DNA of 12,492 nucleotides, from positions 1 through 12,492 of the forward strand of contig JAJPHV010000108.1 in the NCBI GenBank assembly GCA_021325095.1, written 5' to 3'. This stretch comes from Chloroflexota bacterium. GTDB taxonomy: Bacteria; Chloroflexota; Anaerolineae; Aggregatilineales; UBA2796. The translations under genes were made by a program, and so were the position numbers. The notes beneath the pieces are model-generated. The model worked only from the letters and a program-made list of their open reading frames with translations, searched no databases and was not told the DNA's origin. Shown one piece after another: positions 443 to 12,492 of the stretch. Numbering within the stretch: position 1 is the stretch's first letter; each line of letters begins with the position of its first letter.

Positions 443-667
443 CTACAGGACCGCCGTATAACCGGCTTCCCAGATCGCTTTGACAATTTGTTCCGGCGTT
501 ACTGTGCCTGGTTTGACTTCAACACGGGTTTCCCCGTTGCGCCAGTTGTCGATAGTTACCGTTTTTACCCCGTCCAGGGACAGCACTGCCTCCTGGACGT
601 GGTACGCGCAGGTAGGGCAGGTCATCCCCTTGACTTTGAGTACGAGTGGCTGTTGTGAGTTTTCCAT
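443..667 (-). CDS. heavy-metal-associated (HMA) domain metallochaperone, CopZ/MerP-like, without a signal peptide
   Basis: GMTCPTCAYHV matches the GMTCxxC metal-binding loop of the HMA ferredoxin-like fold. The protein is 74 aa if started at MENSQQ, which is preceded by AGAGAGGA at about 10 nt. The longer ORF reaches 754 but the extension has no ribosome binding site. It lies downstream of MerR-type promoter copy P2. Confidence 0.8.
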   Translation of the reverse strand: MENSQQPLVLKVKGMTCPTCAYHVQEAVLSLDGVKTVTIDNWRNGETRVEVKPGTVTPEQIVKAIWEAGYTAVL

Positions 668-793
668 AATGAATTCCATCCTCTCTGGCTCGTAAAGCCT
701 TGTCGTTTGTTTGCGGGTGCTGCATCGCGCGCCTGTCACCGCACCGAATTGCATTGCCAGTGGGCGGCTTCAAGCACGGATATGCCCCGGAGA

Positions 794-827
794 CCATGCT
801 ACATCTTCCAGTCGGTGGAATGTCAAG
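794..827 (-). promoter_or_regulatory. MerR-type promoter/operator copy P2: -35 TTGACA (plus coords 821-826), 19-bp spacer, -10 TAGCAT (796-801); perfect dyad TTCCA-N5-TGGAA (806-820) inside the spacer
   Basis: Read on the minus strand: CTTGACATTCCACCGACTGGAAGATGTAGCATGG. It matches the promoter upstream of merR at 30 of 34 positions. A 19-bp spacer with an internal dyad is the classic MerR-family operator architecture. It sits about 120 nt upstream of the HMA gene start. Confidence 0.6.
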
Positions 828-948: not shown

Positions 949-2289
949 TTACACCATGTAACTTATATCGGAGGATTCGGCTGGATGGACGAAGATCGTC
1001 TGTTTAATATCCGTCGCTGTGAGATGGTGGCGGATAGCAAGCGCGAACAGATTGATAACTTCGCCCGCATGGGAACCCAGCAGGTGCGCGCCAAGAATGC
1101 GTCCGGTGTCCGCGTCCACCAGCACTTTGAACGCCGTGTGTTTTTCATTAGTCCGGCGCGACGAATACCAGCCCTCTGTTTTCTGGAAGTTGACAGTAAA
1201 CTTAAGATCCTTTTCGCGCGCCTCCTCTTCATTCAGCCCCGTTCTTGCCAGCGCAGGAACGGTAAATACCACACTGGGCGTGCCGGTGTAGTCCGGCGTG
1301 CGTTGGTTGCCTCTAAGCAAATTGCTGGAAACAACATGTCCATCGGCAACGGCCACCGGGGTCAGGGGCATTCCCTTCGTAGCAGCCGCATCCCCAGCGG
1401 CATACACGGCAGGATTGGACACACTTTGAAGATAGTCGTTCACGACAACCCCGCGCGTCGTGTACTCAATGCCGCCTTGCTCAAGGTTGAGGCCCTCAAT
1501 GTCAGGGACACGTCCCGCGCCGTGTACGACGAGGTCCGATGGAAAACTACCTCCGTCGGACGTATGCACCCGCAGTTGGTCATTCTCTTTTTCAATGACG
1601 ACGACCTCCGATTGTAACCGCACGTCAATACCGATACTCCTGGTTGCAGCGACCAACTCTGTCACCAGATCCGCGTCGAAGGCTTCCAGCGGGCGTTTGC
1701 CGCGATGCAGAATCGTCACCTGCGCGCCGGCGCGAGCGGCAATATGGGCAAACTCGAATGAAATATACCCTCCGCCGATGAATACGATGCGCTCTGGCAG
1801 CGTTTCCAGTTCAAGAAAATCGGTACTGGTCGCTACGTATTCCGCGCCGGGAATACCCAGGTCACGGGGCTTCGCGCCCGTCGCAATGGCAATACGTTTC
1901 GCAGTCAGCGTTTCGCCATCGAGCTGGAGGCTGTTCGGGCCAACAAACTGTGCCTCGCCGTGATAGGTTGCGATACCGGAGCCACGGAACGATTTCTCGA
2001 TGTTCGCGGGTGTCGGGTCGGTAAAGGTGCGCTTGAAACGGATCAGGTCTGCCCAGTCAATCCGCATCTCGCCTGCAATCCCATGTCCAGTCATGCGGCG
2101 CTGCCAATCCATCAATTCGGCTGCGCCCACTAGCACTTTCTTCGGGTCGCAGCCGCGCAGAGCGCAAGTGCCGCCATACGGACGCGAATCGACCACAGCC
2201 ACTTCCCAACCACTCGAGCGCACTCGCCGCGCGATGTTTTGCCCGGCCATGCCAACGCCGATCACGACAAGATCAAATTCGTTACTCAT
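949..2289 (-). CDS. class I FAD-dependent pyridine nucleotide-disulfide oxidoreductase (glutathione-reductase/MerA-core family). It lacks the NmerA domain and the C-terminal Cys pair.
   Basis: 446 aa. The N-terminus has the FAD Rossmann motif DLVVIGVGMAGQ. The redox-active disulfide reads GGTCALRGCDPKK (CxxxxC). There is a second GxGxxG (FIGGGYISFE). The C-terminal HPAESSD resembles the His-Glu dyad of the dimerisation domain. It starts 46 nt after the MerT-like gene stop. Confidence 0.85.
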   Translation of the reverse strand: MSNEFDLVVIGVGMAGQNIARRVRSSGWEVAVVDSRPYGGTCALRGCDPKKVLVGAAELMDWQRRMTGHGIAGEMRIDWADLIRFKRTFTDPTPANIEKSFRGSGIATYHGEAQFVGPNSLQLDGETLTAKRIAIATGAKPRDLGIPGAEYVATSTDFLELETLPERIVFIGGGYISFEFAHIAARAGAQVTILHRGKRPLEAFDADLVTELVAATRSIGIDVRLQSEVVVIEKENDQLRVHTSDGGSFPSDLVVHGAGRVPDIEGLNLEQGGIEYTTRGVVVNDYLQSVSNPAVYAAGDAAATKGMPLTPVAVADGHVVSSNLLRGNQRTPDYTGTPSVVFTVPALARTGLNEEEAREKDLKFTVNFQKTEGWYSSRRTNEKHTAFKVLVDADTGRILGAHLLGSHAGEVINLFALAIRHHLTATDIKQTIFVHPAESSDISYMV

Positions 2290-2335: not shown

Positions 2336-2686
2336 CTATTGCCGGGCGCGATGTGTCACTGACTGACCGAGCGGTTCACAACATTCGCACGACTTTTCCA
2401 GGGGCAAGTGCTCGGCTTTCGGTCGGGGTTCGGTTGGCGTCAGCGACTGACGTTTAGGCTTGCTATCCTGGCTCAACCACACTGACCCCAGCCCAATGCC
2501 TCCAAAGAAAAGGACAGTGGATAAGGCGAACACCAGACCGGTGTTCGCACTCAACCAGGCACCGAACGCCGTACCCGCCGTCAGAGCCAACACAATCGGC
2601 AGGGTGATCGCCAAATGACAGGGGCAGGCTATAATGCCAACGCCCGTGCTGACGTAACCTCGAATAGATCGGATTTTCGTGCTCAT
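2336..2686 (-). CDS. putative mercuric ion transport membrane protein (MerT/MerF-like; intramembrane CPC plus cytoplasmic CECC)
   Basis: 116 aa from MSTKIRS, which is preceded by GAGGAGG at 7 nt. The upstream Met of the longer ORF lacks a ribosome binding site. It has 2-3 predicted TM helices with ACPCH inside the first. The basic C-terminal tail ends in SCECCEP. It lies immediately downstream of merA. Cys pairs in a TM helix and a cytoplasmic tail are the hallmark of MerT/MerF/MerC importers, although this arrangement is non-canonical. Confidence 0.5.
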   Translation of the reverse strand: MSTKIRSIRGYVSTGVGIIACPCHLAITLPIVLALTAGTAFGAWLSANTGLVFALSTVLFFGGIGLGSVWLSQDSKPKRQSLTPTEPRPKAEHLPLEKSCECCEPLGQSVTHRARQ

Positions 2687-2728
2687 CAGGTTTTTCCTCC
2701 TCGACAATTGAAGCGAACAAGCAATCTT

Positions 2729-4420
2729 TCAACCTGCGCAGCACGACAGCATCGCCACATCTTTCTCAAAGGTCTGCGCGGCCAGCTTCAGCCCTTCGAC
2801 CATCGTCAGATACGGGAAGAAGGTATCGATCAAGTCCTGTAACGTCATGCCCGCTTTGATGGCAACCACCGCCGGTTGGACAACCTCCCCTGCATCGGGG
2901 GCCAGCACATGAGCGCCGAGCAGGTGATCCGTCGTCGCGTCAGCGACCAGTTTGATCAAACCGCGTGTGTCGCGGTTAGCCAGGGCGCGCGGAACGTATG
3001 CCAGCGGTAAAACAGAGGTCTTGACCTCATAGCCCGCCTGGCGCGCCTGCTGTTCGGTCAGCCCCACTGCGGCCACTGCCGGATCGGTGAACGTGACTCG
3101 CGGCAGCACGCTCGTATCATAAACACGGCCTGACCCGTTGAGCGCGTTGTCCGCAGCCAGCGTGCCGCTATAGGCGGCCACATACACGAACATATCGCGC
3201 CCGGTCACGTCGCCTGCGGCATAGACGTAGGGATTGGTCGTGCGTAGCTGTTCATCCACAATGATTTCGCCCCGTTTGCCGAGTTTGACCCCGGCTTCTT
3301 CGAGGGCCAGGCCGCGCGTGTTGGGTCGCCGACCCGTCGCCATCAGCAGGGCTTTTGCCTCGAAGACCAGCGTTTCACCAGCGCGTTCAGCCGTGAGGCG
3401 GTAACCGCGTTCATTCCGGTCTACCCGTGAGATGGTCACGCCAGCCTCAACGATCAGCCCTTCTTCGCGCAGGTAGCCGGTCAGCGCTTCGCTGATCTCT
3501 GGCTCTTCAAAGGGGGTGATCACCGGCATCACTTCCAACACCGTGACCTTCGTGCCGAAGCGCGCGTAAGCCTGAGCCAGTTCCAGCCCGACGGCGTTCG
3601 CGCCGACCACAATCATCGAAGCCGGACGCTCGGTCAGGTCCAGCGCCGAGGTGCTGTCCAGATAGCCAGCTTCCTCCAGACCGGGAATGGGGGGAGTCCA
3701 TGGCTTGGCACCGGTAGCGATGATGATCTTGCCAGGCGTGTACACGGTGGGTGTCGCGTTGTTCCCGACGGGCGCAATCTCAACCCGGTTGTCGCCCAGC
3801 AGTTTAGCCCGGCCCTGGAGGTAGGTAATGTCCGGGTAGGCAGCCAGCACATCAATGTATTTGGCCTGGCGAAGCGTCGTGACCAGTTCATCCTTCTGGG
3901 TGATCACAGCCCCCCAATCTCCGGCGGCGCTCAGGCGCACCGCTCCCTGGAATGGGTGATGCCCCGCCAGGTGATGCAGCTCGGCGGCACGGATGATCGT
4001 TTTAGACGGCACACAACCGACATTGACGCAGGTGCCGCCGATGGTGCTGGCTTCGACGAGGGCGACACGCTTACCCAGTTCAGCCCCCTTGATCGCTGCC
4101 GCGAAGCCTGCCGACCCCCCACCGATGACCATCAAATCGTAATCTTGAGAAGCGCTGTCACCATCCTGGCTGGTGGGCTGTAGCTCACGGCGCGCTTTCA
4201 CCGTCGCGCGATAACCCGCCTCTTTGACTGCCGTGACGAGCGCCTCGCTGGGCACGTCGCTGCTGGCCTTCAAGGTCGCTTGTGCTGACTGCCAGCTGGG
4301 TACGTCCACCTCGCTGACGCCAGGAACGCTCTTCAACGCTTTGGTGACGTGAACCGCGCAGCTATCGCAGGTCATCCCGCGCACGTCGAGCGTAATGTGT
4401 TGTACTGTCTCCGTTGTCAT
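2729..4420 (-). CDS. merA: mercuric reductase MerA with an N-terminal HMA (NmerA) domain
   Basis: 563 aa. The N-terminus has GMTCDSCAVHV (HMA). FAD binding is DLMVIGGGSAGFAAA. The redox-active site is GGTCVNVGCVPSK. The C-terminus ends LSCCAG, the vicinal Cys pair diagnostic of MerA. GAGAGGGAAACCA precedes the ATG as a ribosome binding site. Confidence 0.95.
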   Translation of the reverse strand: MTTETVQHITLDVRGMTCDSCAVHVTKALKSVPGVSEVDVPSWQSAQATLKASSDVPSEALVTAVKEAGYRATVKARRELQPTSQDGDSASQDYDLMVIGGGSAGFAAAIKGAELGKRVALVEASTIGGTCVNVGCVPSKTIIRAAELHHLAGHHPFQGAVRLSAAGDWGAVITQKDELVTTLRQAKYIDVLAAYPDITYLQGRAKLLGDNRVEIAPVGNNATPTVYTPGKIIIATGAKPWTPPIPGLEEAGYLDSTSALDLTERPASMIVVGANAVGLELAQAYARFGTKVTVLEVMPVITPFEEPEISEALTGYLREEGLIVEAGVTISRVDRNERGYRLTAERAGETLVFEAKALLMATGRRPNTRGLALEEAGVKLGKRGEIIVDEQLRTTNPYVYAAGDVTGRDMFVYVAAYSGTLAADNALNGSGRVYDTSVLPRVTFTDPAVAAVGLTEQQARQAGYEVKTSVLPLAYVPRALANRDTRGLIKLVADATTDHLLGAHVLAPDAGEVVQPAVVAIKAGMTLQDLIDTFFPYLTMVEGLKLAAQTFEKDVAMLSCCAG

Positions 4421-4529
4421 TGGTTTCCCTCTCTACCTATCCGCAAAATTAGACTGATGCCTTGAGCCAGTGGTCATACCGGCTGTGTCAACCATGTTGA
4501 TAAATGGCTATGCAACACGCTACCTTTCT

Positions 4530-5189
4530 TTACCCGGCATTTTGCATTGCCTGCTGAGGCGTATCCGGCGAAACTGGTGGGTGTACTAGCCTGTACGTCG
4601 CTACGGGGATCGCTTTGCCCTTAAGCGACAGATCGCCGATAAACTGGTACTCATCCGGCTCCAGCAGCTTCTGGATGTCGGCGGTGCAGAGGGCTTGTTT
4701 TCCCTCGGCTAATGCGGCCAGGCGGCTGGCCGTATTGACCGTGTCGCCGATGATGGTCAAGTCCTGTGTGCGCCCAGTCCCTAGCCGGGATAACATGGCC
4801 GTACCTCGCGCCAGTCCGATGCCGAGGGTTGGACAGACTGTCGATGGATAGCACGATTTTATGCGCTCGAACCCCTCAATCAGCGTCAGCGCCGTGTGGT
4901 AGGCGTGTTTCACTTCGCGGCGCGGTTCGGTGGTGTCGCTGAAGGCAGCCAGGATGCCATCGCCCAGGAACTTGAAAATCTCTCCAGCCTGTTGCTGAAT
5001 AATGTCGCTGGCAAGCTGGTAAAACCGATCCAGCAACGTCACAACCTCACGCACCGGCAGTTGCTCGGTCAGGGAGGTGAAGCCCCGCACATCGGCAAAC
5101 ATCACCGTCAGAGGCTGTTCGCGCACGCAGCAATCCACAACAATAGCAGGGTGGTCGCTGCTTAACGGGCGCAGTGCTGACGCGCTCAT
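4530..5189 (-). CDS. stand-alone class III nucleotidyl cyclase (adenylate/guanylate cyclase catalytic domain)
   Basis: 219 aa. VMFADVRGFT carries the first metal Asp and KFLGDGILAAF the second. GDTVNTASRL carries the transition-state Asn and Arg. The C-terminal LKGKAIPVATYRL is the typical end of a cyclase homology domain. A 28-aa N-terminal extension contains VVDCCV. Its start overlaps the stop of the upstream CBM48-like gene as ATGA. Confidence 0.85.
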   Translation of the reverse strand: MSASALRPLSSDHPAIVVDCCVREQPLTVMFADVRGFTSLTEQLPVREVVTLLDRFYQLASDIIQQQAGEIFKFLGDGILAAFSDTTEPRREVKHAYHTALTLIEGFERIKSCYPSTVCPTLGIGLARGTAMLSRLGTGRTQDLTIIGDTVNTASRLAALAEGKQALCTADIQKLLEPDEYQFIGDLSLKGKAIPVATYRLVHPPVSPDTPQQAMQNAG

Positions 5190-5476
5190 GTGTTGACGAC
5201 CGAGTTCTCTGAACCGAACGGGTTAGGGACGTAAGCGTCCGCGTGCCAATCGTTATGCCATTCGGTCTCATTGACCAGGTAGCGGAATTGATGGGCGCAC
5301 TGTGTTGGCAGTGTAAAGGTTGCTGTAAATTTTCCTTCCTTCGTCTGCTTCATCACCTGGGGCTGCCAGTCCGTAAACTCGCCACAAATCCAGGCGTGTT
5401 GTGCCTGCAATTCGCCGGGCAGGACGAAGGGGACCTGACAGCTTTGCCCATCTGAAGCATAGGCTTTCTCGATCAT
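5186..5476 (-). CDS. small CBM48 / AMPK-beta glycogen-binding-domain-like (E-set) protein
   Basis: 96 aa. VPFVLPGELQAQHAWICGEFTDWQ...KFTATFTLPTQCAHQFRYLVNETEWHNDWHA resembles the AMPK-beta GBD / isoamylase N-terminal CBM48 pattern: V-P-x-x-F-x-W, G-x-F-x-x-W, a KF/YKF beta strand and W-x-x-D. A ribosome binding site GGGAAAGGA sits 8 nt before the ATG. It is translationally coupled to the cyclase. Confidence 0.55.
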   Translation of the reverse strand: MIEKAYASDGQSCQVPFVLPGELQAQHAWICGEFTDWQPQVMKQTKEGKFTATFTLPTQCAHQFRYLVNETEWHNDWHADAYVPNPFGSENSVVNT

Positions 5477-5609: not shown

Positions 5610-6002
5610 TTACTCAGATGACCAATGCCAACCTGCATTTGTGGGTCTTCGCGCCAGACCCTGCGCGGCATTACACATAGCCTTGAGTTCGTCACGGACT
5701 TGCTCAAGGTCACGAATACGATCCTGAATTTCCCCGATCCGGCGGCCCATCAGGTTCATGACGTAGCGGCAAGGAGGCTCACCGCGTTCTCGAAAAGCTA
5801 CAATTTCGGCAATCTCATCCAGCCCCAGGTCCAGCACATGCACCCGTCGGATGAAGCGCAGCCGTTCCACGTCCGCATCCTCGTATCCCCGGTAGCCATT
5901 TGGGGCACGTTTGGCAGGCGGCAGCAAGCCGATTTCCTCGTAGAAACGGATGGTCTTGCACGGCACGCCTGTCCGGTGACTCAACTCGCTGATTTGAAAC
6001 AT
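5610..6002 (-). CDS. merR: MerR-family metal-responsive transcriptional regulator
   Basis: 130 aa from MFQISELS, preceded by GGAGGTGA at 5 nt. The HTH is ISELSHRTGVPCKTIRFYEEIGLL, followed by a coiled-coil dimerisation helix. Cys sits at the start of the dimerisation helix (EPPCRYV) and at AMCNAAQG. It lies directly downstream of the P1 dyad promoter. Confidence 0.8.
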   Translation of the reverse strand: MFQISELSHRTGVPCKTIRFYEEIGLLPPAKRAPNGYRGYEDADVERLRFIRRVHVLDLGLDEIAEIVAFRERGEPPCRYVMNLMGRRIGEIQDRIRDLEQVRDELKAMCNAAQGLARRPTNAGWHWSSE

Positions 6003-6034: not shown

Positions 6035-6068
6035 CCATGCTACGACTTCCTGTCGCTGGAATGTCAAG
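6035..6068 (-). promoter_or_regulatory. MerR-type promoter/operator copy P1: -35 TTGACA (6062-6067), 19-bp spacer, -10 TAGCAT (6037-6042), dyad TTCCt-N5-TGGAA
   Basis: Read on the minus strand: CTTGACATTCCAGCGACAGGAAGTCGTAGCATGG. The implied transcription start is about 28 nt upstream of the merR ATG at 6002. The 19-bp spacer is suboptimal for sigma70 and typical of MerR-activated promoters. Confidence 0.6.
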
Positions 6069-6137: not shown

Positions 6138-6356
6138 TCAATCCTCCTGGTGAAGTGTCTCACGGTCGGCTTTGGGTACTTGTTCACCGATCCAGTCTGC
6201 CACGGGCGACTGCAAGCTGCCGCCGCAAGCTGGACAGCGTGGCTCAGTATCGGCACAGTATGCGCCACAGGCCACACACTGCAACTCACCTTCGTACATG
6301 GCCCGTACCAGTTCGATGATCGCCTGATAATCGCCCCCCATACGACAACACATCAT
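6138..6356 (-). CDS. small Cys-rich zinc-ribbon protein
   Basis: 72 aa from MMCCRMGG, preceded by AAAAGGAAGGGA as a ribosome binding site. It contains C-x2-C-x3-C-x6-C-x2-C (CVACGAYCADTEPRCPACGG) plus an N-terminal MMCC. That is 8 Cys in 72 aa. Confidence 0.45.
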   Translation of the reverse strand: MMCCRMGGDYQAIIELVRAMYEGELQCVACGAYCADTEPRCPACGGSLQSPVADWIGEQVPKADRETLHQED

Positions 6357-7030: not shown

Positions 7031-7348
7031 ATGACGAATACAACGCCTGACCTTGGTGAGCAGACAACCACCTACCTCGATCCTGAACTGGTCGGAAATC
7101 TGCAAGATCGCCTTAGCCGAATCGCTGGTCACGTTAGCGCGGTTTCGCGGATGCTGGGTGAGCAAAAAGACTGTGATCAAATCCTGATCCAGATGGCCGC
7201 CATTAAAGCGGCCATGAATCAGGTGATCATCAAGACTCTGGAAGGACATATTTCGATCTGTATTCAGACACAAACGGCTGAAGGACAGAACAGTGAAGCA
7301 CTGGAAAGCTTAATGAAAGCCTTGAATGTTGTGCTAAAAAATTCCTAA
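7031..7348 (+). CDS. csoR: CsoR/RcnR-family (DUF156) metal-sensing transcriptional repressor
   Basis: 105 aa. LQDRLSRIAGHVSAVSRML...KDCDQILIQMAAIKAAMNQVIIKTLEGHISIC matches the CsoR helical bundle. The Cu(I)-ligand positions Cys (KDC), His and Cys (EGHISIC, H-x3-C) are all present. A consensus promoter and ribosome binding site lie upstream. Confidence 0.9.
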   Translation: MTNTTPDLGEQTTTYLDPELVGNLQDRLSRIAGHVSAVSRMLGEQKDCDQILIQMAAIKAAMNQVIIKTLEGHISICIQTQTAEGQNSEALESLMKALNVVLKNS

Positions 7349-7508: not shown

Positions 7509-7781
7509 TCATGCTTTCACTACGGTCGGTGAAGAACGCAAAGTCTTTGCTGAGGCGCCGAGCCAGGCCAACGAGCACTCCACCAGCCAGCGCCAGGGGA
7601 TGACTTCAAAGCCCTGGAGGTCATCGCTGCGCAGGGTAATATCGACAATGATCGTCTTGAACTTCTGGGCGAGCCAGTCGACAAACTCGCCGCGATAGCC
7701 GCCATCGGCCCACAGCCGCTTCAGAGGCTTGAACACGACTTTGGGCAAGGCCTTGAGCAGTTCAATGCTGAGATCACTTGC
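7509..7781 (-). mobile_element. 3' fragment of an IS5-family (IS427/IS903-like DDE) transposase gene, truncated at the 5' side; pseudogene remnant
   Basis: LWADGGYRGEFVDWLAQ...LRSDDLQGFEVIPWRWLVECSLAWLG matches the C-terminal DDE region of IS5-family transposases (xADxGY, RW(V/I)VE, AWL). The frame is closed by a TAG at 7782-7784 on the minus strand. Sequence further upstream is not transposase-like in any frame. Confidence 0.6.
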
Positions 7782-7942: not shown

Positions 7943-8377
7943 ATGTATATGCCGCTGGTGACACGATGGGCCATTCGGGCCGCTATGGTTTACCTGTTGC
8001 TAGGGCTGCTGACCGGAACCCTCTACTGGGCGAATCTACAATGGGCATTGTGGCCGCCGCTGGCCGCGTTAAGCCCAACCTATCTGCATTTGCTGGTGAT
8101 CGGCTGGCTGACCCAGCTTGTTTTCGGCGTCATCTACTGGATGTTCCCGATCATCAACAAAGCCAACATGCGCGGCGACCCCCGGCTGGCATGGAGCGTG
8201 TTGCTCCTGCTCAATGCGGGCATGATCCTGCGCCTGATCTGCGAACCCTGGCGCGCCAGCGCTCCCAATGACCTGAACGGCCTGGGGCTGGTCGTGTCGG
8301 CCATATTGCTCACGCTGGCTGGCTACCTGTTCGTGGTCGTTTGCTGGCCGCGTGTGCGTGAGAGAGCAGGAAGCTGA
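7943..8377 (+). CDS. 4-TM integral membrane protein, paralog A (conserved H-x2-LLV-x-GWL-x-QL-x2-GV-x-YW-x2-P motif)
   Basis: 144 aa. Four hydrophobic helices. The ATG at 7943 or 7949 is preceded by GGAAAGGA. A paralog follows 3 nt later. Confidence 0.6.
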   Translation: MYMPLVTRWAIRAAMVYLLLGLLTGTLYWANLQWALWPPLAALSPTYLHLLVIGWLTQLVFGVIYWMFPIINKANMRGDPRLAWSVLLLLNAGMILRLICEPWRASAPNDLNGLGLVVSAILLTLAGYLFVVVCWPRVRERAGS

Positions 8378-8380
8378 CCA

Positions 8381-8836
8381 ATGCCCCTCTTGAGTCGCTG
8401 TTTCATCCGCTCTGCGCTGGTTTGCCTGGCAATTGGTTTCACGTTGGGCGGGCTGATGCTCTCGGCGAAGGGTGGCGCTGTCGATGCGCGGGTCTGGGCC
8501 TGGCTGCCCATGCACATCGCTTTGCTGGTCAATGGCTGGCTCGTTCAGCTTTCACTGGGCGTCATGTACTGGATCTTGCCGCGTATTCATCTGGGGGATC
8601 GCGGGCGGCCCGCCTGGGCGTGGAGCGGGTTCGTCTGCCTGCAAGTTGGCCTGCTGCTGGCGCTCGTTTCCGGGGCCAGCCTGTGGATTGCAGAGGCAGC
8701 CAACCTGTTTGCACCGGCGATGGTGTTACAGGCGGCAGGCATCGTCCTGTTTGCCGTCCATGCCTGGCCGCGCATCCGCCCCGCGATTGTGCGCGCCGCG
8801 CAGGGCGCAGGTGACAGAACAGTTTCAAACTCCTGA
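8381..8836 (+). CDS. 4-TM integral membrane protein, paralog B, translationally coupled to paralog A
   Basis: 151 aa. It shares HIALLVNGWLVQLSLGVMYWILP and AWAWS with paralog A (HLLVIGWLTQLVFGVIYWMFP and LAWS). AGGAAG lies at the end of gene A. Confidence 0.6.
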   Translation: MPLLSRCFIRSALVCLAIGFTLGGLMLSAKGGAVDARVWAWLPMHIALLVNGWLVQLSLGVMYWILPRIHLGDRGRPAWAWSGFVCLQVGLLLALVSGASLWIAEAANLFAPAMVLQAAGIVLFAVHAWPRIRPAIVRAAQGAGDRTVSNS

Positions 8837-8919: not shown

Positions 8920-10962
8920 CTAACTCTGTTTGTCGCCGCTCTCGGCCACGTCCATCGCACCGACCACATTCTGACCATTGCCAGACTTGTTGGCGATCTG
9001 GTCAAGGATGCTCTGGCGGATGCGTTCGACCTCGGTACTGGGCCTGCTCTGAGCGCCCGCCTTCCCGTCAACGGTCAACTTCTCGGACAGCAGCATCGCC
9101 ATCAGCGCCTCGAACGCGCTGTAGCTGCCGCCATTGCCACTGCCGTTGCCGCCGGTGATCACCATCTTCGGCACGATGTCGATACCGGATTTCTCGACGG
9201 CAGCGCTGAAGCGATCCAACGCCTGTTGGAGCACCTGGAACTGCGGCCCGCCGTAAGCGCGTACCTGTTCCTCGACGGCCAGGGCGCGGGCAATCCCGAT
9301 ACGGGCTTCGCGCTCGGCGTCCGCTTCGGCCAGCGCTTTGATCTTGGCCGCTTCTTGCAGCGAGCGCTGGTAGGAAGCCTTACCTTCGTTGCTCTGGATA
9401 GTGATGCTGATCTGCGATTCGGTCAGCGATTGCTGCTGCCGGGCGATGGCTTCGGCCTCGCGGAGTTCACGCTCTTTGGCAGCGGCAGCTTCCTTGCGGC
9501 TGTACGTTTCGATCTGTTCGACGGCGATCTGGCGATCCCGGAGCTGGGCCAGGATTTGCTCGATCTTCTGATCCGAGGCCGAGGACGCGGGCGTGCCAAT
9601 CAGCACTTCTTCCAGTTCCAGGTTGTAATGTGCAAAGCGATCCTTCATCTCCCGCGATGATTGATCTTGAATCTGGCTGCGTTCCTGGATCAACTGGATA
9701 AGGGTGCGCGTCTGCCCGATGTTCTTGAAGTACGCCGCCACCATCGGGTCAAGGGTCTGGTCAACCAGGCGCTTGATGTCGCCAAAGCGCTGGATGACCA
9801 GCGGCGCTTTGCGGTAGTCGATGTGAATGACCACCGAAAGCGGCAGAAGCGGCTCAAAAGCATCCTTCGTGATCAGTTCCACTGCCGACAGGTTTTCGTC
9901 GAAGCGATGCGCGCCGACCTCGTCCTTGTTCCACTTCAAGATGATGTTGGTAGTCGGCACCAGAATGACTTTCCCCGCATAGGTGTTGAAGGCATACTTG
10001 CCGGGCATCAGCGGCGTACTCCAAACACCCTTGAAGCCTTTCTCCACCATTTCGCCGTGCTTGTAATCTTCGCCGGAGATGTCGCCGCCTCGTCCGCCTG
10101 TGTACGACACAATGACCCCGACGAAACCGACGTCGATCACTGTCTTGGGAATCATCTCGACGGTGCCGAACAGCCGATTGATGAAATACGTGCCCTCGAC
10201 GAGCACCTGCAACTGGCGACCACGCCGGCCACCCGCTGCCAGGAACTTCTCCGGGTCCTGGAAATTGTTGTGATACGTACTGGGGTCCTTCGGGTCGTCG
10301 CCTACTGTCGGGGCGATGATGTCATCCTGGGAAAGGGATGGGCCGTCGTGTACGGTTACGATTCCGACCAGATCGTCTGCACCTTTGATGACGACAGGCC
10401 GGAAGCCCTCGCGCTCCTGGATCAGGGCGGCCATCCGTTTGAAAGTGGCTTCTTCCTCACGACTGATCGGCAGGTAGTAGTTGCCTGCTTCGGTCAACAC
10501 CACGAACTGCGCCAGGTTGATGGCATATGTACCTTCACGCAGGATTTCACGCTGCGGGCCGCGCTGCCCACCGTGTTTCAGAAAGCCTTCCACGTCCTGG
10601 AAGGTCTTGCCTTCGGGGATGACCGCACCGAGGGTCTGTGTCGGGCGCATCGGCATACCGTCGCGCGCGAAGACGTACCCGATCTGGCCCTGCGGAATCG
10701 TGACCAATGGCGCAAGATGAACACGATACTGGAAGGGCATCAGAAAATGGACGCCACCGCGCAGAACATTCGGTTGAAAACCGGCCTCTTTGTTGAGCGC
10801 AATGAACCCGTCCTTGACGGAACCCTTGCCCGAAAAGACCTTTTCCACGATGCCGATACGATTGTTGGGGACGATGCGGATGACCCTGGTCAACAGAAAG
10901 TACAGCACGACGATTATGGCGACCAGCAGGAGAACTGTAACGGCAAGCTGTAGCTGCGGCAT
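8920..10962 (-). CDS. flotillin-family SPFH (band 7) membrane scaffold protein
   Basis: 680 aa. It has an N-terminal TM hairpin, an SPFH-like core (RIVPNNRIGIVEKVFSGKG) and a long Glu/Ala-rich coiled coil (EAAAAKERELREAEAIARQQ, ALAEADAEREARIG) typical of the flotillin domain. GAGGAG sits 7 nt before the ATG. Confidence 0.9.
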   Translation of the reverse strand: MPQLQLAVTVLLLVAIIVVLYFLLTRVIRIVPNNRIGIVEKVFSGKGSVKDGFIALNKEAGFQPNVLRGGVHFLMPFQYRVHLAPLVTIPQGQIGYVFARDGMPMRPTQTLGAVIPEGKTFQDVEGFLKHGGQRGPQREILREGTYAINLAQFVVLTEAGNYYLPISREEEATFKRMAALIQEREGFRPVVIKGADDLVGIVTVHDGPSLSQDDIIAPTVGDDPKDPSTYHNNFQDPEKFLAAGGRRGRQLQVLVEGTYFINRLFGTVEMIPKTVIDVGFVGVIVSYTGGRGGDISGEDYKHGEMVEKGFKGVWSTPLMPGKYAFNTYAGKVILVPTTNIILKWNKDEVGAHRFDENLSAVELITKDAFEPLLPLSVVIHIDYRKAPLVIQRFGDIKRLVDQTLDPMVAAYFKNIGQTRTLIQLIQERSQIQDQSSREMKDRFAHYNLELEEVLIGTPASSASDQKIEQILAQLRDRQIAVEQIETYSRKEAAAAKERELREAEAIARQQQSLTESQISITIQSNEGKASYQRSLQEAAKIKALAEADAEREARIGIARALAVEEQVRAYGGPQFQVLQQALDRFSAAVEKSGIDIVPKMVITGGNGSGNGGSYSAFEALMAMLLSEKLTVDGKAGAQSRPSTEVERIRQSILDQIANKSGNGQNVVGAMDVAESGDKQS

Positions 10963-11189: not shown

Positions 11190-11265
11190 GAACCCGTAGC
11201 TCAATCGGTAGAGCAGCGGACTTTTAATCCGTTGGTTGAGAGTTCGAGTCTCTCCGGGTTCACCA
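11190..11265 (+). tRNA. tRNA-Lys (anticodon UUU), with genome-encoded CCA
   Basis: Manual cloverleaf: acceptor GAACCCG/CGGGTTC; D-arm GCTC-AATCGGTA-GAGC; anticodon stem GCGGA/TCCGT with loop CTTTTAA; 5-nt variable loop; T-arm GAGAG-TTCGAGT-CTCTC; discriminator A then CCA. Confidence 0.93.
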
Positions 11266-11267
11266 CC

Positions 11268-11309
11268 CACAAACCGCATGGAGATGCGGTTTGTGCTTTT
11301 CTTGCGTTT
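11268..11309 (+). terminator. rho-independent terminator after the tRNA: 12-bp stem CACAAACCGCAT / ATGCGGTTTGTG, GGAG loop, then CTTTTCTTGCGTTT
   Basis: A perfect 12-bp stem followed by a T-rich tract immediately 3' of the tRNA. Confidence 0.7.
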
Positions 11310-11599
11310 AGGCCAACGGACATGCAGTCTTTTGTTCCTGTGCCGATCTCCCGGAAGATCAACGCTGAGTGAGCGGCGGCTCTCGCAGGCCAGCATATGC
11401 CTGCGGAACCCCTTCGAGTGGGACTGACCGCTGGAACCAGTCGCCATCTTCGGGATAGATCAGGCTGAGTACCCCCACCTCGATCTCCTCCTCGCCGTCG
11501 TCGCTGGCGATGATCCCGACAAGCTGGCCGGGGTAAGCCCGTGCCAGGCCTATCAAGACGGCGACGATCTCCTCCGGGTTGATGGTGATGATCTTGACG

Positions 11600-12335
11600 C
11601 TCCTCCTCCTCACTCGAAAATACGTCTGTGAGCGGGCTGAATCGCTCGTGGCGCTCAGACAACTCCCGCCCGCCGAACACCGCGTAGAATGACGCAGTGG
11701 TGTTCACATTACTGTGGCCCATGAGCTGTGACACTTCGGGCAGGCTGGCTCCCTTGCGCAGCATCTCGCGGGCAAAGCCGTGCCGGAAGCTGTGAGGGTT
11801 GGCACGGCCCGTCACCCCGGCCTTGCGCTTCAGGCGCTTCAGGATGTGCTTCAGGCCGTTGACGGTCAGGGGCCGCGCGTAGCTTCGGGGAAGCAGTGAG
11901 CAAAAGACCGTTGTGGCCTGTGGTGGGCGGACGGCCAGCCAGTCCGCTAGGGAGGCCTCGGTGCGGGCCGTGAAGGGCACGCTGCGCAGCCGGTCGCCCT
12001 TCTCCGTGACGACGGCCCGCCGGTGGGCAAAGTCGATGGCGTCCAGGGTCAGCGAAACCAGCCCCCGGCTCGGCAGCCGGTATCGACAAAGACAGCCAGC
12101 ATGGCCCGGTTTCGCTTGCCGAGAGGAGTGTCATCCGTCGCGGCGAACAGTTTGCGGAGATCGTCCAGATCGACGGCCTTTGGCTGTGGCTGGGAGCGGC
12201 GCGGCAGACGGATGCACTGCATGGGGTTCGTGGCCGAGGCGAGGTTGTGCTCGGCCCAAGCCCAGTTGAAGAAGCGTTTCAGGGCGCGGATGCGACCCCG
12301 GATGGTCTCAACGGCCAGTCCGCCTGACGTTTCGG
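11600..12335 (-). pseudogene. tyrosine recombinase / phage-type integrase, degraded: frameshift near 12060, no in-frame stop after the catalytic Tyr, N-terminus replaced
   Basis: The segment 12335-12049 encodes LAVETIRGRIRALKRFFNWA...GKRNRAMLAVFVDTGCRAGG, with the core-binding domain and box I Arg. The next frame continues as LVSLTLDAIDF...ANPHSFRHGFAREMLRKGASL...LMGHSNVNTTASFYAVF, giving the HxxR, His and Tyr catalytic residues. The frame switch lies in a C5 run at 12063-12067. The frame then stays open through the tRNA gene to 11201. The 3' end of the annotated span is only estimated. Confidence 0.7.
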
Positions 12336-12492
12336 GTCGATGATGGCGGCACTGGGCTGCGCGTCTCGGCCCAGCGGAATACGTAACTTTTCGCGCAGGA
12401 CGGTATTGATGCGCTCCCCAATCCCCGCTCGTCGCCACTGCCGATAATAGTCATGCACCGTCTTGTACGGTGGAAAATCATGCGGCAACAAA
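12336..12492 (-). mobile_element. 5' fragment of an IS5-family (IS427-group) transposase gene, partial at the window edge and joined directly to the integrase remnant
   Basis: LPHDFPPYKTVHDYYRQWRRAGIGERINTVLREKL...AQPSAAIID matches the conserved OrfA region of IS427-group transposases, where the usual form is LPxDFPPWxTVYxxFRRWrxdGtWe ... PSAgiIDSQSVKT. Similarity ends after IID, exactly where integrase-like coding begins in another frame. Confidence 0.55.

Follow-up and report, generated by a model that had tools for sequence, protein, structure and literature searches.

We examined a 12,492-nt window, the whole of the analysed stretch of contig JAJPHV010000108.1 (forward strand; assembly GCA_021325095.1) from a Chloroflexota bacterium, whose minus strand carries a long co-directional gene array running from a 72-aa open reading frame (ORF; 6356) down to an HMA gene (443). 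The array includes a mercury-resistance (mer) operon in which two genes, one for a 96-aa CBM48-like protein and one for a 219-aa class III nucleotidyl cyclase, lie between a MerR-family regulator gene and merA, the gene for mercuric reductase (Table 1). The initial annotation of this DNA had singled out the pair, and its coordinates proved correct throughout: the stop codon of the 96-aa ORF and the start codon of the cyclase share an ATGA on the coding strand (TCAT on the plus strand, 5186-5189), and exactly 109 nt separate the cyclase stop (4530) from the merA ATG (4420). Both of its domain assignments also held, as did its translational coupling of the pair. The 96-aa ORF matched Pfam AMPK1_CBM (PF16561) with 30.7 bits (gathering score 26.8, E = 3.7e-7), and the cyclase matched PF00211 with 63.5 bits (cut-off 21.9 bits, E = 2.4e-17). 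The merA product scored 562 bits with TIGR02053 (cut-off 454 bits) and ends in CCAG; its closest named relatives are MerA proteins from Chloroflexota metagenome-assembled genomes (80% identity). The pair is a real, conserved feature, in which a class IIIb cyclase and a CBM48 domain have been recruited as a module into mer operons. On balance we slightly favour the view that, in a narrow and rare lineage of uncultured Chloroflexota, it serves the extended mer operons as a conserved accessory signalling module, which suggests that mercury stress is coupled there to a cyclic-nucleotide signal.

The proposal that the pair belongs with mer genes was borne out by its relatives elsewhere. All nine clusters of the cyclase clade that we examined lie in mer loci (the window with L001-L005; L006-L008; L096-L097; L009-L010; L183; L011-L012; L095; L013-L014; L099). 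The window's own sequence was found on five contigs (L001-L005), and L006-L008 (87% identity) and L096-L097 (82%) share its gene order. In L009, L010 and L183 (63-64% identity) the order is merR, a gene for a 132-aa Cys-rich protein, the cyclase gene and merA. In L011, L012 and L095 (50-55% identity) a merB-merR-merA unit is followed by a second merR, the cyclase gene and a gene for a glutathione-reductase-like (GR-like) reductase, whose start the cyclase stop overlaps by 4 nt (L011/L095). In L013, L014 and L099 (47-49% identity) a merR-merA-merF-reductase stretch is followed by genes for a 72-aa protein, a 143-aa Cys-rich protein, a 96-aa CBM48 protein and the cyclase, and then by merB. The pair of the L013 lineage, which adjoins merB, has kept the 4-nt overlap; its cyclase is 47% and its CBM48 protein 59% identical to those of the window. 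Metagenome-assembled genomes with the module include GCA_040959955.1, GCA_964639245.1, GCA_034432255.1 and GCA_037024575.1.

Ordinary cyclases served as a control for this linkage. A scan of contigs with the cyclase alignment used patterns that were too generic, and among the matches listed were only ordinary cyclases, of ≤38% identity. Eighty class III cyclase loci (1.03 Mb) taken from these contained no merR, and their sole merA-like match was one 30%-identical flavoenzyme. Pairwise ratios of nonsynonymous to synonymous substitution (dN/dS) were 0.14-0.26 for the cyclase, 0.12-0.16 for CBM48, 0.16-0.25 for the regulator and 0.05-0.10 for merA. Thus, with ratios of 0.12-0.26, the cyclase and CBM48 genes are both real and maintained by purifying selection.

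The mer-linked cyclases are a tiny, discrete clade. A word-index search of 5.8 billion proteins returned a sharply bounded group of 12 clusters (46-100% identity, 204-243 aa), with the next level at 33%. In an exhaustive HMMER search of 1.84 billion representatives, 108,473 of which were cyclases, two representatives scored 353-363 bits over the full profile; the next scored 211 bits and matched only from profile position 23.

The cyclase active site is complete. The metal-binding (D33, D77) and transition-state (N152, R156) residues, reported as intact in the initial annotation, were invariant in the 12 clade sequences and in 55 wider cyclase sequences. We take K73 (in K-x-x-G-D) and T145 (seven residues before the Asn) to be the Lys/Thr adenine-specifying pair of class IIIb adenylyl cyclases, an assignment that presumes equivalence to K938/D1018 of mammalian C2, K1057/T1139 of CyaC and the corresponding residues of mammalian soluble adenylyl cyclase (sAC). 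T145 was invariant in the clade, and position 73 was Lys in 10 clade sequences and Arg in two (P0008, P0009); both residues were ≥90% conserved in the wider set of 55. Because all the catalytic residues and the Lys/Thr pair are present, the enzyme is predicted from its sequence to be a class IIIb, ATP-specific cyclase. The best solved relatives of the clade profile were OaPAC, bPAC and CyaB (E = 1.5e-29 to 1e-27; 106 bits on OaPAC). An AlphaFold2 model of the cyclase, with a predicted local distance difference test score (pLDDT) of 88.7, gave CyaC (S. platensis) and CyaB (P. aeruginosa) as its best Foldseek matches (E = 1.6e-17, template-modelling (TM) score 0.77-0.88, ~2 Å root-mean-square deviation). 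With the class IIIb soluble adenylyl cyclases (CyaC, CyaB, bPAC/OaPAC and mammalian sAC) the mer cyclase shares the catalytic fold, the Lys/Thr pair, the two Asp, the Asn and the Arg. Whereas those enzymes carry N-terminal sensor domains (BLUF, MASE, GAF/PAS and others), the mer cyclase has only ~22 residues before strand β1, which include a Cys-Cys pair and of which residues 1-18 are predicted to be disordered. Unlike theirs, too, its gene lies in mer operons and is often coupled to a separate gene for a small partner.

The vicinal pair Cys20-Cys21 lies at the domain boundary, immediately before strand β1, and is specific to the clade. It was present in 11/11 full-length clade sequences, and no CC occurred anywhere in the outgroup cyclases (0/44). 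The short clade member P0007 (190 aa, L096) is a gene-caller artefact: the upstream L096 frame encodes ...VVDCCVREQPLTVMFADVRGFT, with the CC pair and the ATGA overlap both kept. Many outgroup cyclases (~265 aa) have an N-terminal CxxC...CxxC zinc ribbon. Because the second CxxC of this ribbon aligns at the CC position, the mer clade looks like a derivative in which the zinc ribbon was lost and a vicinal dithiol was kept or evolved. The MerA C-terminus, MerT and MerC all bind Hg(II) through vicinal Cys pairs, and in other class III cyclases regulatory domains attach directly N-terminal to strand β1. By analogy, Cys20-Cys21 may sense Hg.

The nearest cyclases outside mer loci (P0058, P0089, P0112 and P0032; ~265 aa) belong to a large family with a four-Cys zinc ribbon, DPRCxLC...NPxxCxxCFE, N-terminal and immediately adjacent to the catalytic domain. 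They may represent an uncharacterised zinc- or redox-regulated family.

By the initial annotation, a lack of homologues of the 96-aa ORF would have counted against the proposal. The ORF instead encodes a paralogue of a common family that is linked to glycogen loci. The word-index search gave only four relatives, and an alignment-based metagenome scan gave more than 546 full-length relatives of ~96 aa (41-52% identity); mer-linked copies were not among the matches listed in that scan. The best 80 loci of these relatives contained no cyclase or mer gene, and their recurrent neighbours were alpha-glucan phosphorylase (DUF3417+Phosphorylase; GlgP) in 23, GlgC in 18 and starch/glycogen synthase (GlgA) in 10. 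The mer-linked copies differ from those beside GlgP, GlgC and GlgA in their cyclase neighbour and mer operon setting, in a 2-3-residue deletion after W37 and, often, in a C-x-C at residues 29-31. By sequence, they are a recruited sub-branch of the widespread glycogen-associated 96-aa family.

Profile comparisons placed the 96-aa protein with domains of glycogen-binding type. A family member, L103, also matched PF02922 CBM_48 (25.0 against a cut-off of 22.4), and a profile of 35 family sequences matched the CBM48 of a type II pullulanase in the PDB (7.5e-7), branching enzymes and the AMPK β1 CBM (1.6e-4). The AlphaFold2 model is of low confidence (pLDDT 60, from a 4-sequence alignment); its top 17 Foldseek matches were all AMPK β CBM (TM score 0.46-0.60, E ~1e-2). 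In a pairwise alignment, AMPK β2 residues W100, K126, W133, L146, T148 and N150, which we take to be the sugar contacts as in the AMPK β1 CBM structure, corresponded to W37, R65, W73, F87, S89 and N91, and W37, R65 and W73 were invariant in the 35 family members. The partner keeps these predicted sugar-binding residues and belongs to the same domain family as the AMPK β domain and the stand-alone proteins of glycogen loci.

A third recurrent partner, absent from the window, is the 132-143-aa Cys-rich protein, which resembles a double zinc ribbon (CCPxC...CPxC...CPxC...CxxCGH). Its gene precedes the cyclase gene in L009 (7562-7960) and L183 (40-438) and the CBM48 gene in L013 (4955-5386) and L099 (43-471), and the L013 and L009 proteins are 51% identical. 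On comparison it proved to be a homologue of neither CBM48 nor MerR, and its only matches were sub-threshold ones to zinc ribbons.

The pair stands, as first annotated, behind a MerR-type promoter, P1. Promoters activated by the MerR family are recognised by a long spacer that encloses a dyad, and such promoters were found here only by a dedicated search for 19-nt spacers; a generic sigma-70 and terminator scan of the locus gave nothing informative, with no terminator between P1 and merA, and in an Rfam scan the 109-nt and 133-nt spacers matched no RNA element, riboswitches included. The P1 architecture, with a near-identical dyad, precedes the regulator gene in L006, L096 and L009 and, in L011 and L095, the canonical merR-merA units. 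The merR-merA promoter of L013 has the same architecture and 19-nt spacer with a dyad of its own, TTGTAGTGACTACAAG. This operator is repeated directly upstream of the Cys-rich/CBM48/cyclase/merB unit and again before the HMA gene, and L099 begins with the promoter found at the L013 Cys-rich/CBM48/cyclase unit. In the window, a second promoter of the P1 type, P2, lies upstream of the HMA gene, and the locus has at least two units under one operator type. The pair is thus on the merA strand with P1 ahead of it and no terminator before merA, and with a possible internal promoter in the 109-nt spacer. That spacer element, a TTGACA with a dyad that differs from that of P1, was conserved in alignments of the window, L006 and L096 and absent from L009. 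It has no consensus -10 hexamer, terminator or Rfam match, and may be an internal promoter/operator for merA or an RNA hairpin.

The adjacent regulator, annotated initially as merR, belongs to the MerR family as stated and is not a canonical merR. Because the -10 hexamer of P1 overlaps the ATG of the 142-aa ORF, the regulator most likely starts at ATG 6002 (130 aa, with GGAGGTG ahead), which matches public gene calls. It scored 83 bits with TIGR02051 (cut-off 150.85) and fell below every NCBIfam metal-sensor cut-off. In alignments, it keeps the helix-turn-helix and the dimerisation helix and lacks the C-terminal Cys-x-Cys-His metal-ligand motif, so that only C78, at the start of the dimerisation helix, is retained of the three Hg-ligand cysteines of MerR. 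There are two paralogue types. Regulators that adjoin merA or come from cyclase-free loci (L011, L095, L013, L100 and L101) end in C-[VI]-C-H, so that, counting the Cys that opens the dimerisation helix, they have three thiols, as in canonical MerR. The motif-less type, a MerR paralogue without Hg ligands, lies directly upstream of the cyclase module in the window, L006, L096 and L009 and as the second merR of L011 and L095.

By its sequence, the motif-less protein may be a MerD-like or partner-dependent regulator. Like MerD, a MerR-like co-regulator without Hg ligands, the regulator of the window is a MerR homologue that has lost the C-terminal Cys ligands and sits in a mer operon sharing the MerR operator. 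However, its similarity to MerD is weak (35.6 bits; MerD-model cut-off 103.65), its gene opens the operon and is not distal, and the Cys with which the dimerisation helix begins is retained.

These regulators bear on an alternative that we consider unlikely, namely that the module is the sensing and regulatory apparatus of the operon and not an output of it. The MerR without the Cys loop would then rely on the Cys-rich cyclase module for its input, or act like MerD at the shared operator, and the cyclase would tune mer expression through its CC motif or through cyclic AMP (cAMP). The distribution of the paralogues fits this: the MerR lacking the Cys loop is directly upstream of the cyclase or its partner in six loci from four lineages, C-[VI]-C-H is kept by all the regulators that adjoin merA or come from a cyclase-free locus, and the operators of the two paralogues are near-identical. 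However, these MerR-family proteins of 113-130 aa have no known site for binding a cyclic nucleoside monophosphate (cNMP), and L013 and L099 carry the module without the motif-less paralogue.

If the pair is instead an accessory signalling module, the following steps can be proposed. P1 would transcribe the regulator gene, the CBM48-like gene, the cyclase gene and probably merA, and the MerR paradigm leads us to infer that Hg(II) or thiol stress induces it. The ATGA overlap would couple translation of the 96-aa protein to that of the cyclase, so that both probably arise in matched quantities and work together, presumably in a physical complex. The minimal cyclase, as a homodimer, would make cAMP from ATP, since D33/D77, N152/R156 and K73/T145 are intact and the fold resembles that of CyaC and CyaB. 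More speculatively, Cys20-Cys21 would bind Hg(II) or report thiol status, thereby gating activity, and the CBM48 partner would tether or tune the cyclase on glycogen. The cAMP output might then be linked to the supply of carbon and reductant for MerA, which depends on NADPH, and for the thiol reductases that the locus encodes. Control of glycogen metabolism by cAMP is established in E. coli and animals (PMC9530166). In its most specific form, the proposal is of a mercury-gated adenylyl cyclase, in which Hg(II) on the Cys20-Cys21 pairs of the dimer directly switches cAMP synthesis, with CBM48 and/or zinc-ribbon proteins as co-sensors, and so mobilises glycogen-derived NADPH for MerA and the thiol reductases. 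We put this forward tentatively and consider it rather unlikely.

Several observations weigh against a mercury-responsive signalling module. Beside the module stands a regulator without the canonical Hg ligands, and Hg induction of the window locus is therefore not assured. The conserved TTGACA and dyad upstream of merA could uncouple merA from the pair transcriptionally. Two clade members have Arg in place of K73. No cNMP receptor gene was seen in the loci retrieved, and the structural model of the CBM48 protein is of low confidence. Because Chloroflexota mer loci with MerA 76-80% identical to that of the window (L100, L101/L102) lack the module, it must be dispensable for Hg resistance, that is, accessory. 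The partner also varies, with CBM48 in four lineages, the Cys-rich zinc-ribbon protein in L009/L183, both in L013/L099 and neither in L011/L095; therefore, the role of CBM48 is not obligatory.

The mer loci that lack the module also fit a different explanation, that the pair is a passenger with a role of its own (for example in glycogen or cAMP control) that is unrelated to mercury and merely linked to a mobile mer island. The island-like surroundings (tRNA-Lys, a broken tyrosine integrase and insertion sequence (IS) fragments) and the glycogen loci of the wider CBM48 family agree with it. We nevertheless find it distinctly improbable, as the cyclase clade occurs only in mer loci and at varied positions in them (before merA, merB or the GR-like gene), L013 and L099 give it a dedicated MerR operator, and its reading frames overlap those of mer-locus genes. 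Linkage alone would not be expected to outlast 47-65% sequence divergence plus rearrangement.

The protein could also be a catalytically silent cyclase fold that binds and buffers cytosolic Hg(II) through its cysteines, which would account for the conserved CC pair and for the further cysteines C113, C119 and C167 of the sub-lineage formed by the window, L006, L096, L009 and L183. This is very doubtful, because the catalytic and substrate-binding residues are all invariant across 46-87% identity and would be needless in a metal sponge. The initial annotation also offered a two-gene module of Pycsar- or CBASS-like logic. Hardly credible, finally, is such an anti-phage module in which a cyclic (pyrimidine) nucleotide activates an effector: PADLOC PycC profiles do match the cyclase (best 68.5 bits, E = 1.4e-19), but with a score close to that of generic PF00211 and far below the 106 bits to class IIIb adenylyl cyclases, no effector (TIR, transmembrane or nuclease) lies next to the pair, PADLOC gave no match to the partner, the Lys/Thr pair indicates adenine, and the neighbours are in every case mer genes with MerR operators. 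The pair does resemble Pycsar in its small two-gene layout and in having a homologous class III-like cyclase domain; it differs in lacking an effector gene and a defence-island context, in its purine-type specificity residues and in its exclusive mer context. No match to a CD-NTase (cGAS/DncV-like), the enzyme of CBASS, was found, the enzyme here being a class III cyclase.

Our literature search brought up no paper that describes a mer operon with a class III cyclase, in agreement with the initial annotation, and the word 'cyclase' is absent from a 2021 survey of mer gene diversity (PMC8261052). A broader claim, that a second-messenger enzyme in a mer operon is without precedent, does not stand: the nearest precedent, urf2/mrp of the Tn501/Tn21-type mer operons of C. 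metallidurans, encodes an EAL-domain phosphodiesterase of cyclic di-GMP that is induced by metals together with merA and has been shown to be functional (PMC6629876). Like the mer cyclase gene, urf2/mrp (Tn501/Tn21; Tn4378/Tn4380) lies within a mer operon and encodes an enzyme of nucleotide second-messenger metabolism; it is co-induced with merA by metals, accessory and unneeded for Hg reduction (PMC6629876). In contrast to the mer cyclase, its product degrades cyclic di-GMP, does not make a cNMP and is unrelated in fold (EAL+DUF3330); urf2/mrp lies at the distal end of proteobacterial transposon operons and has neither a CBM48 partner nor a CC motif. The Chloroflexota module is a second, independent case of a second-messenger enzyme recruited into mer operons, after the EAL phosphodiesterase of Tn501/Tn21.

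What would such a module mean for mercury resistance? Mer operons are the textbook case of self-contained detoxification, with a sensor, transport and a reductase. A conserved cAMP-synthesising enzyme in them, if confirmed, would imply that some bacteria alert the whole cell to mercury or thiol stress, beyond removing the metal, and a Hg-type Cys-Cys pair together with a coupled protein of glycogen-binding type would possibly link heavy-metal defence to reserves of energy and reductant. Mercury gating of the cyclase, if real, would make it the first class III cyclase under metal-thiolate regulation and would give mercury resistance its first cNMP branch. A compact, 219-aa candidate for a metal-responsive cyclase could also be a part for biosensors.

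Table 1. Features of the window (12,492 nt) and of related loci. Positions without a locus name refer to the window.
Feature	Position	Strand	Match or remark
72-aa Cys-rich ORF, N-terminal MCC, CxxC...CxxC, zinc-ribbon-like	6138-6356	-	directly upstream of P1
P1, MerR-type promoter/operator: TTGACA (6067-6062), 19-nt spacer with dyad TTCCAGCGACAGGAA, TAGCAT (6042-6037)	6037-6067	-	
MerR-family regulator (MerR2), 130 aa from ATG 6002	5610-6002	-	Pfam MerR_1, MerR, MerR-DNA-bind
96-aa single-domain CBM48/AMPK-beta-CBM-like ORF	5186-5476	-	Pfam AMPK1_CBM PF16561
219-aa minimal class IIIb-type nucleotidyl (predicted adenylyl) cyclase	4530-5189	-	PF00211
TTGACA and dyad AGCCGGT-N6-ACTGGCT in the 109-nt cyclase-merA spacer	4465-4491	-	
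merA, mercuric reductase, N-terminal HMA domain, C-terminal CC	2729-4420	-	TIGR02053
MerE-like small membrane protein, candidate Hg transporter	2336-2707	-	Pfam MerE
446-aa GR-like pyridine-nucleotide disulfide oxidoreductase (flavoenzyme)	949-2289	-	
P2, second MerR-type promoter: TTGACA, 19-nt spacer with dyad TTCCACCGACTGGAAG, TAGCAT	796-826	-	upstream of HMA gene
HMA metallochaperone gene	443-754	-	HMA Pfam match
Flanking genes (CsoR/RcnR, COX1-like/DUF2871-like and SPFH/Band-7 set)	7031-7348; 7943-8836; 8920-10962	+; +; -	
tRNA-Lys, integrase and IS set	11190-11265; 11201-11980; 12049-12438; 7509-7748; 12279-12491	+; -; -; -; -	
Motif-less regulators	window 5610-6002; L006 7187-7579; L096 4415-4807; L009 7161-7502; L011 7582-7950	window -	
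C-[VI]-C-H regulators	L011 4991-5401; L013 599-1015; L100 8544-8957; L101 3499-3939		
Extended gene set regions	window 949-2289; L001 15333-17313; L011 10012-13915; L101 4716-8439	window -	

Downstream of merA, the MerE-like protein matched Pfam MerE with 29.6 bits (cut-off 22.8 bits), and the 446-aa GR-like reductase that follows recurs in the extended mer loci. The Chloroflexota mer loci studied here are extended in that a GR-like flavoenzyme, one or two AhpC/redoxin-like proteins, a DsbD-like membrane protein, HMA proteins and DUF3237 recur in them. This gene set looks like a thiol/disulfide maintenance set that travels with merA.

The 72-aa Cys-rich ORF at the head of the array had no Pfam match. 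The protein, which begins with M(M)CC and has the pattern MCC...CxxC...CxxC, is conserved in L096 (4042-4305; 72% identity) and L013 (4702-4920; 39%). In L013, its gene directly precedes the operator and the Cys-rich/CBM48/cyclase unit, and in L009 (6577-6933) the N-terminal segment of the protein is fused to an HMA domain.

The mer array is flanked by genes for a CsoR/RcnR-family metal repressor, two small COX1-like/DUF2871-like membrane proteins and a 680-aa SPFH/Band-7 protein. Further along the window, tRNA-Lys(UUU) abuts a tyrosine-integrase gene that is apparently split into two ORFs, and IS4/5-type transposase fragments are also present. This arrangement suggests a decayed integrative island that contains or adjoins the mer region.

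Downstream of the cyclase gene in L099 lies the N-terminus of a MalT-like STAND regulator (1663-2490; NCBIfam MalT, E = 7e-72). The two neighbours recall what we take to be a comparable arrangement in mycobacterial cyclase-ATPase-LuxR fusion proteins such as Rv0386.

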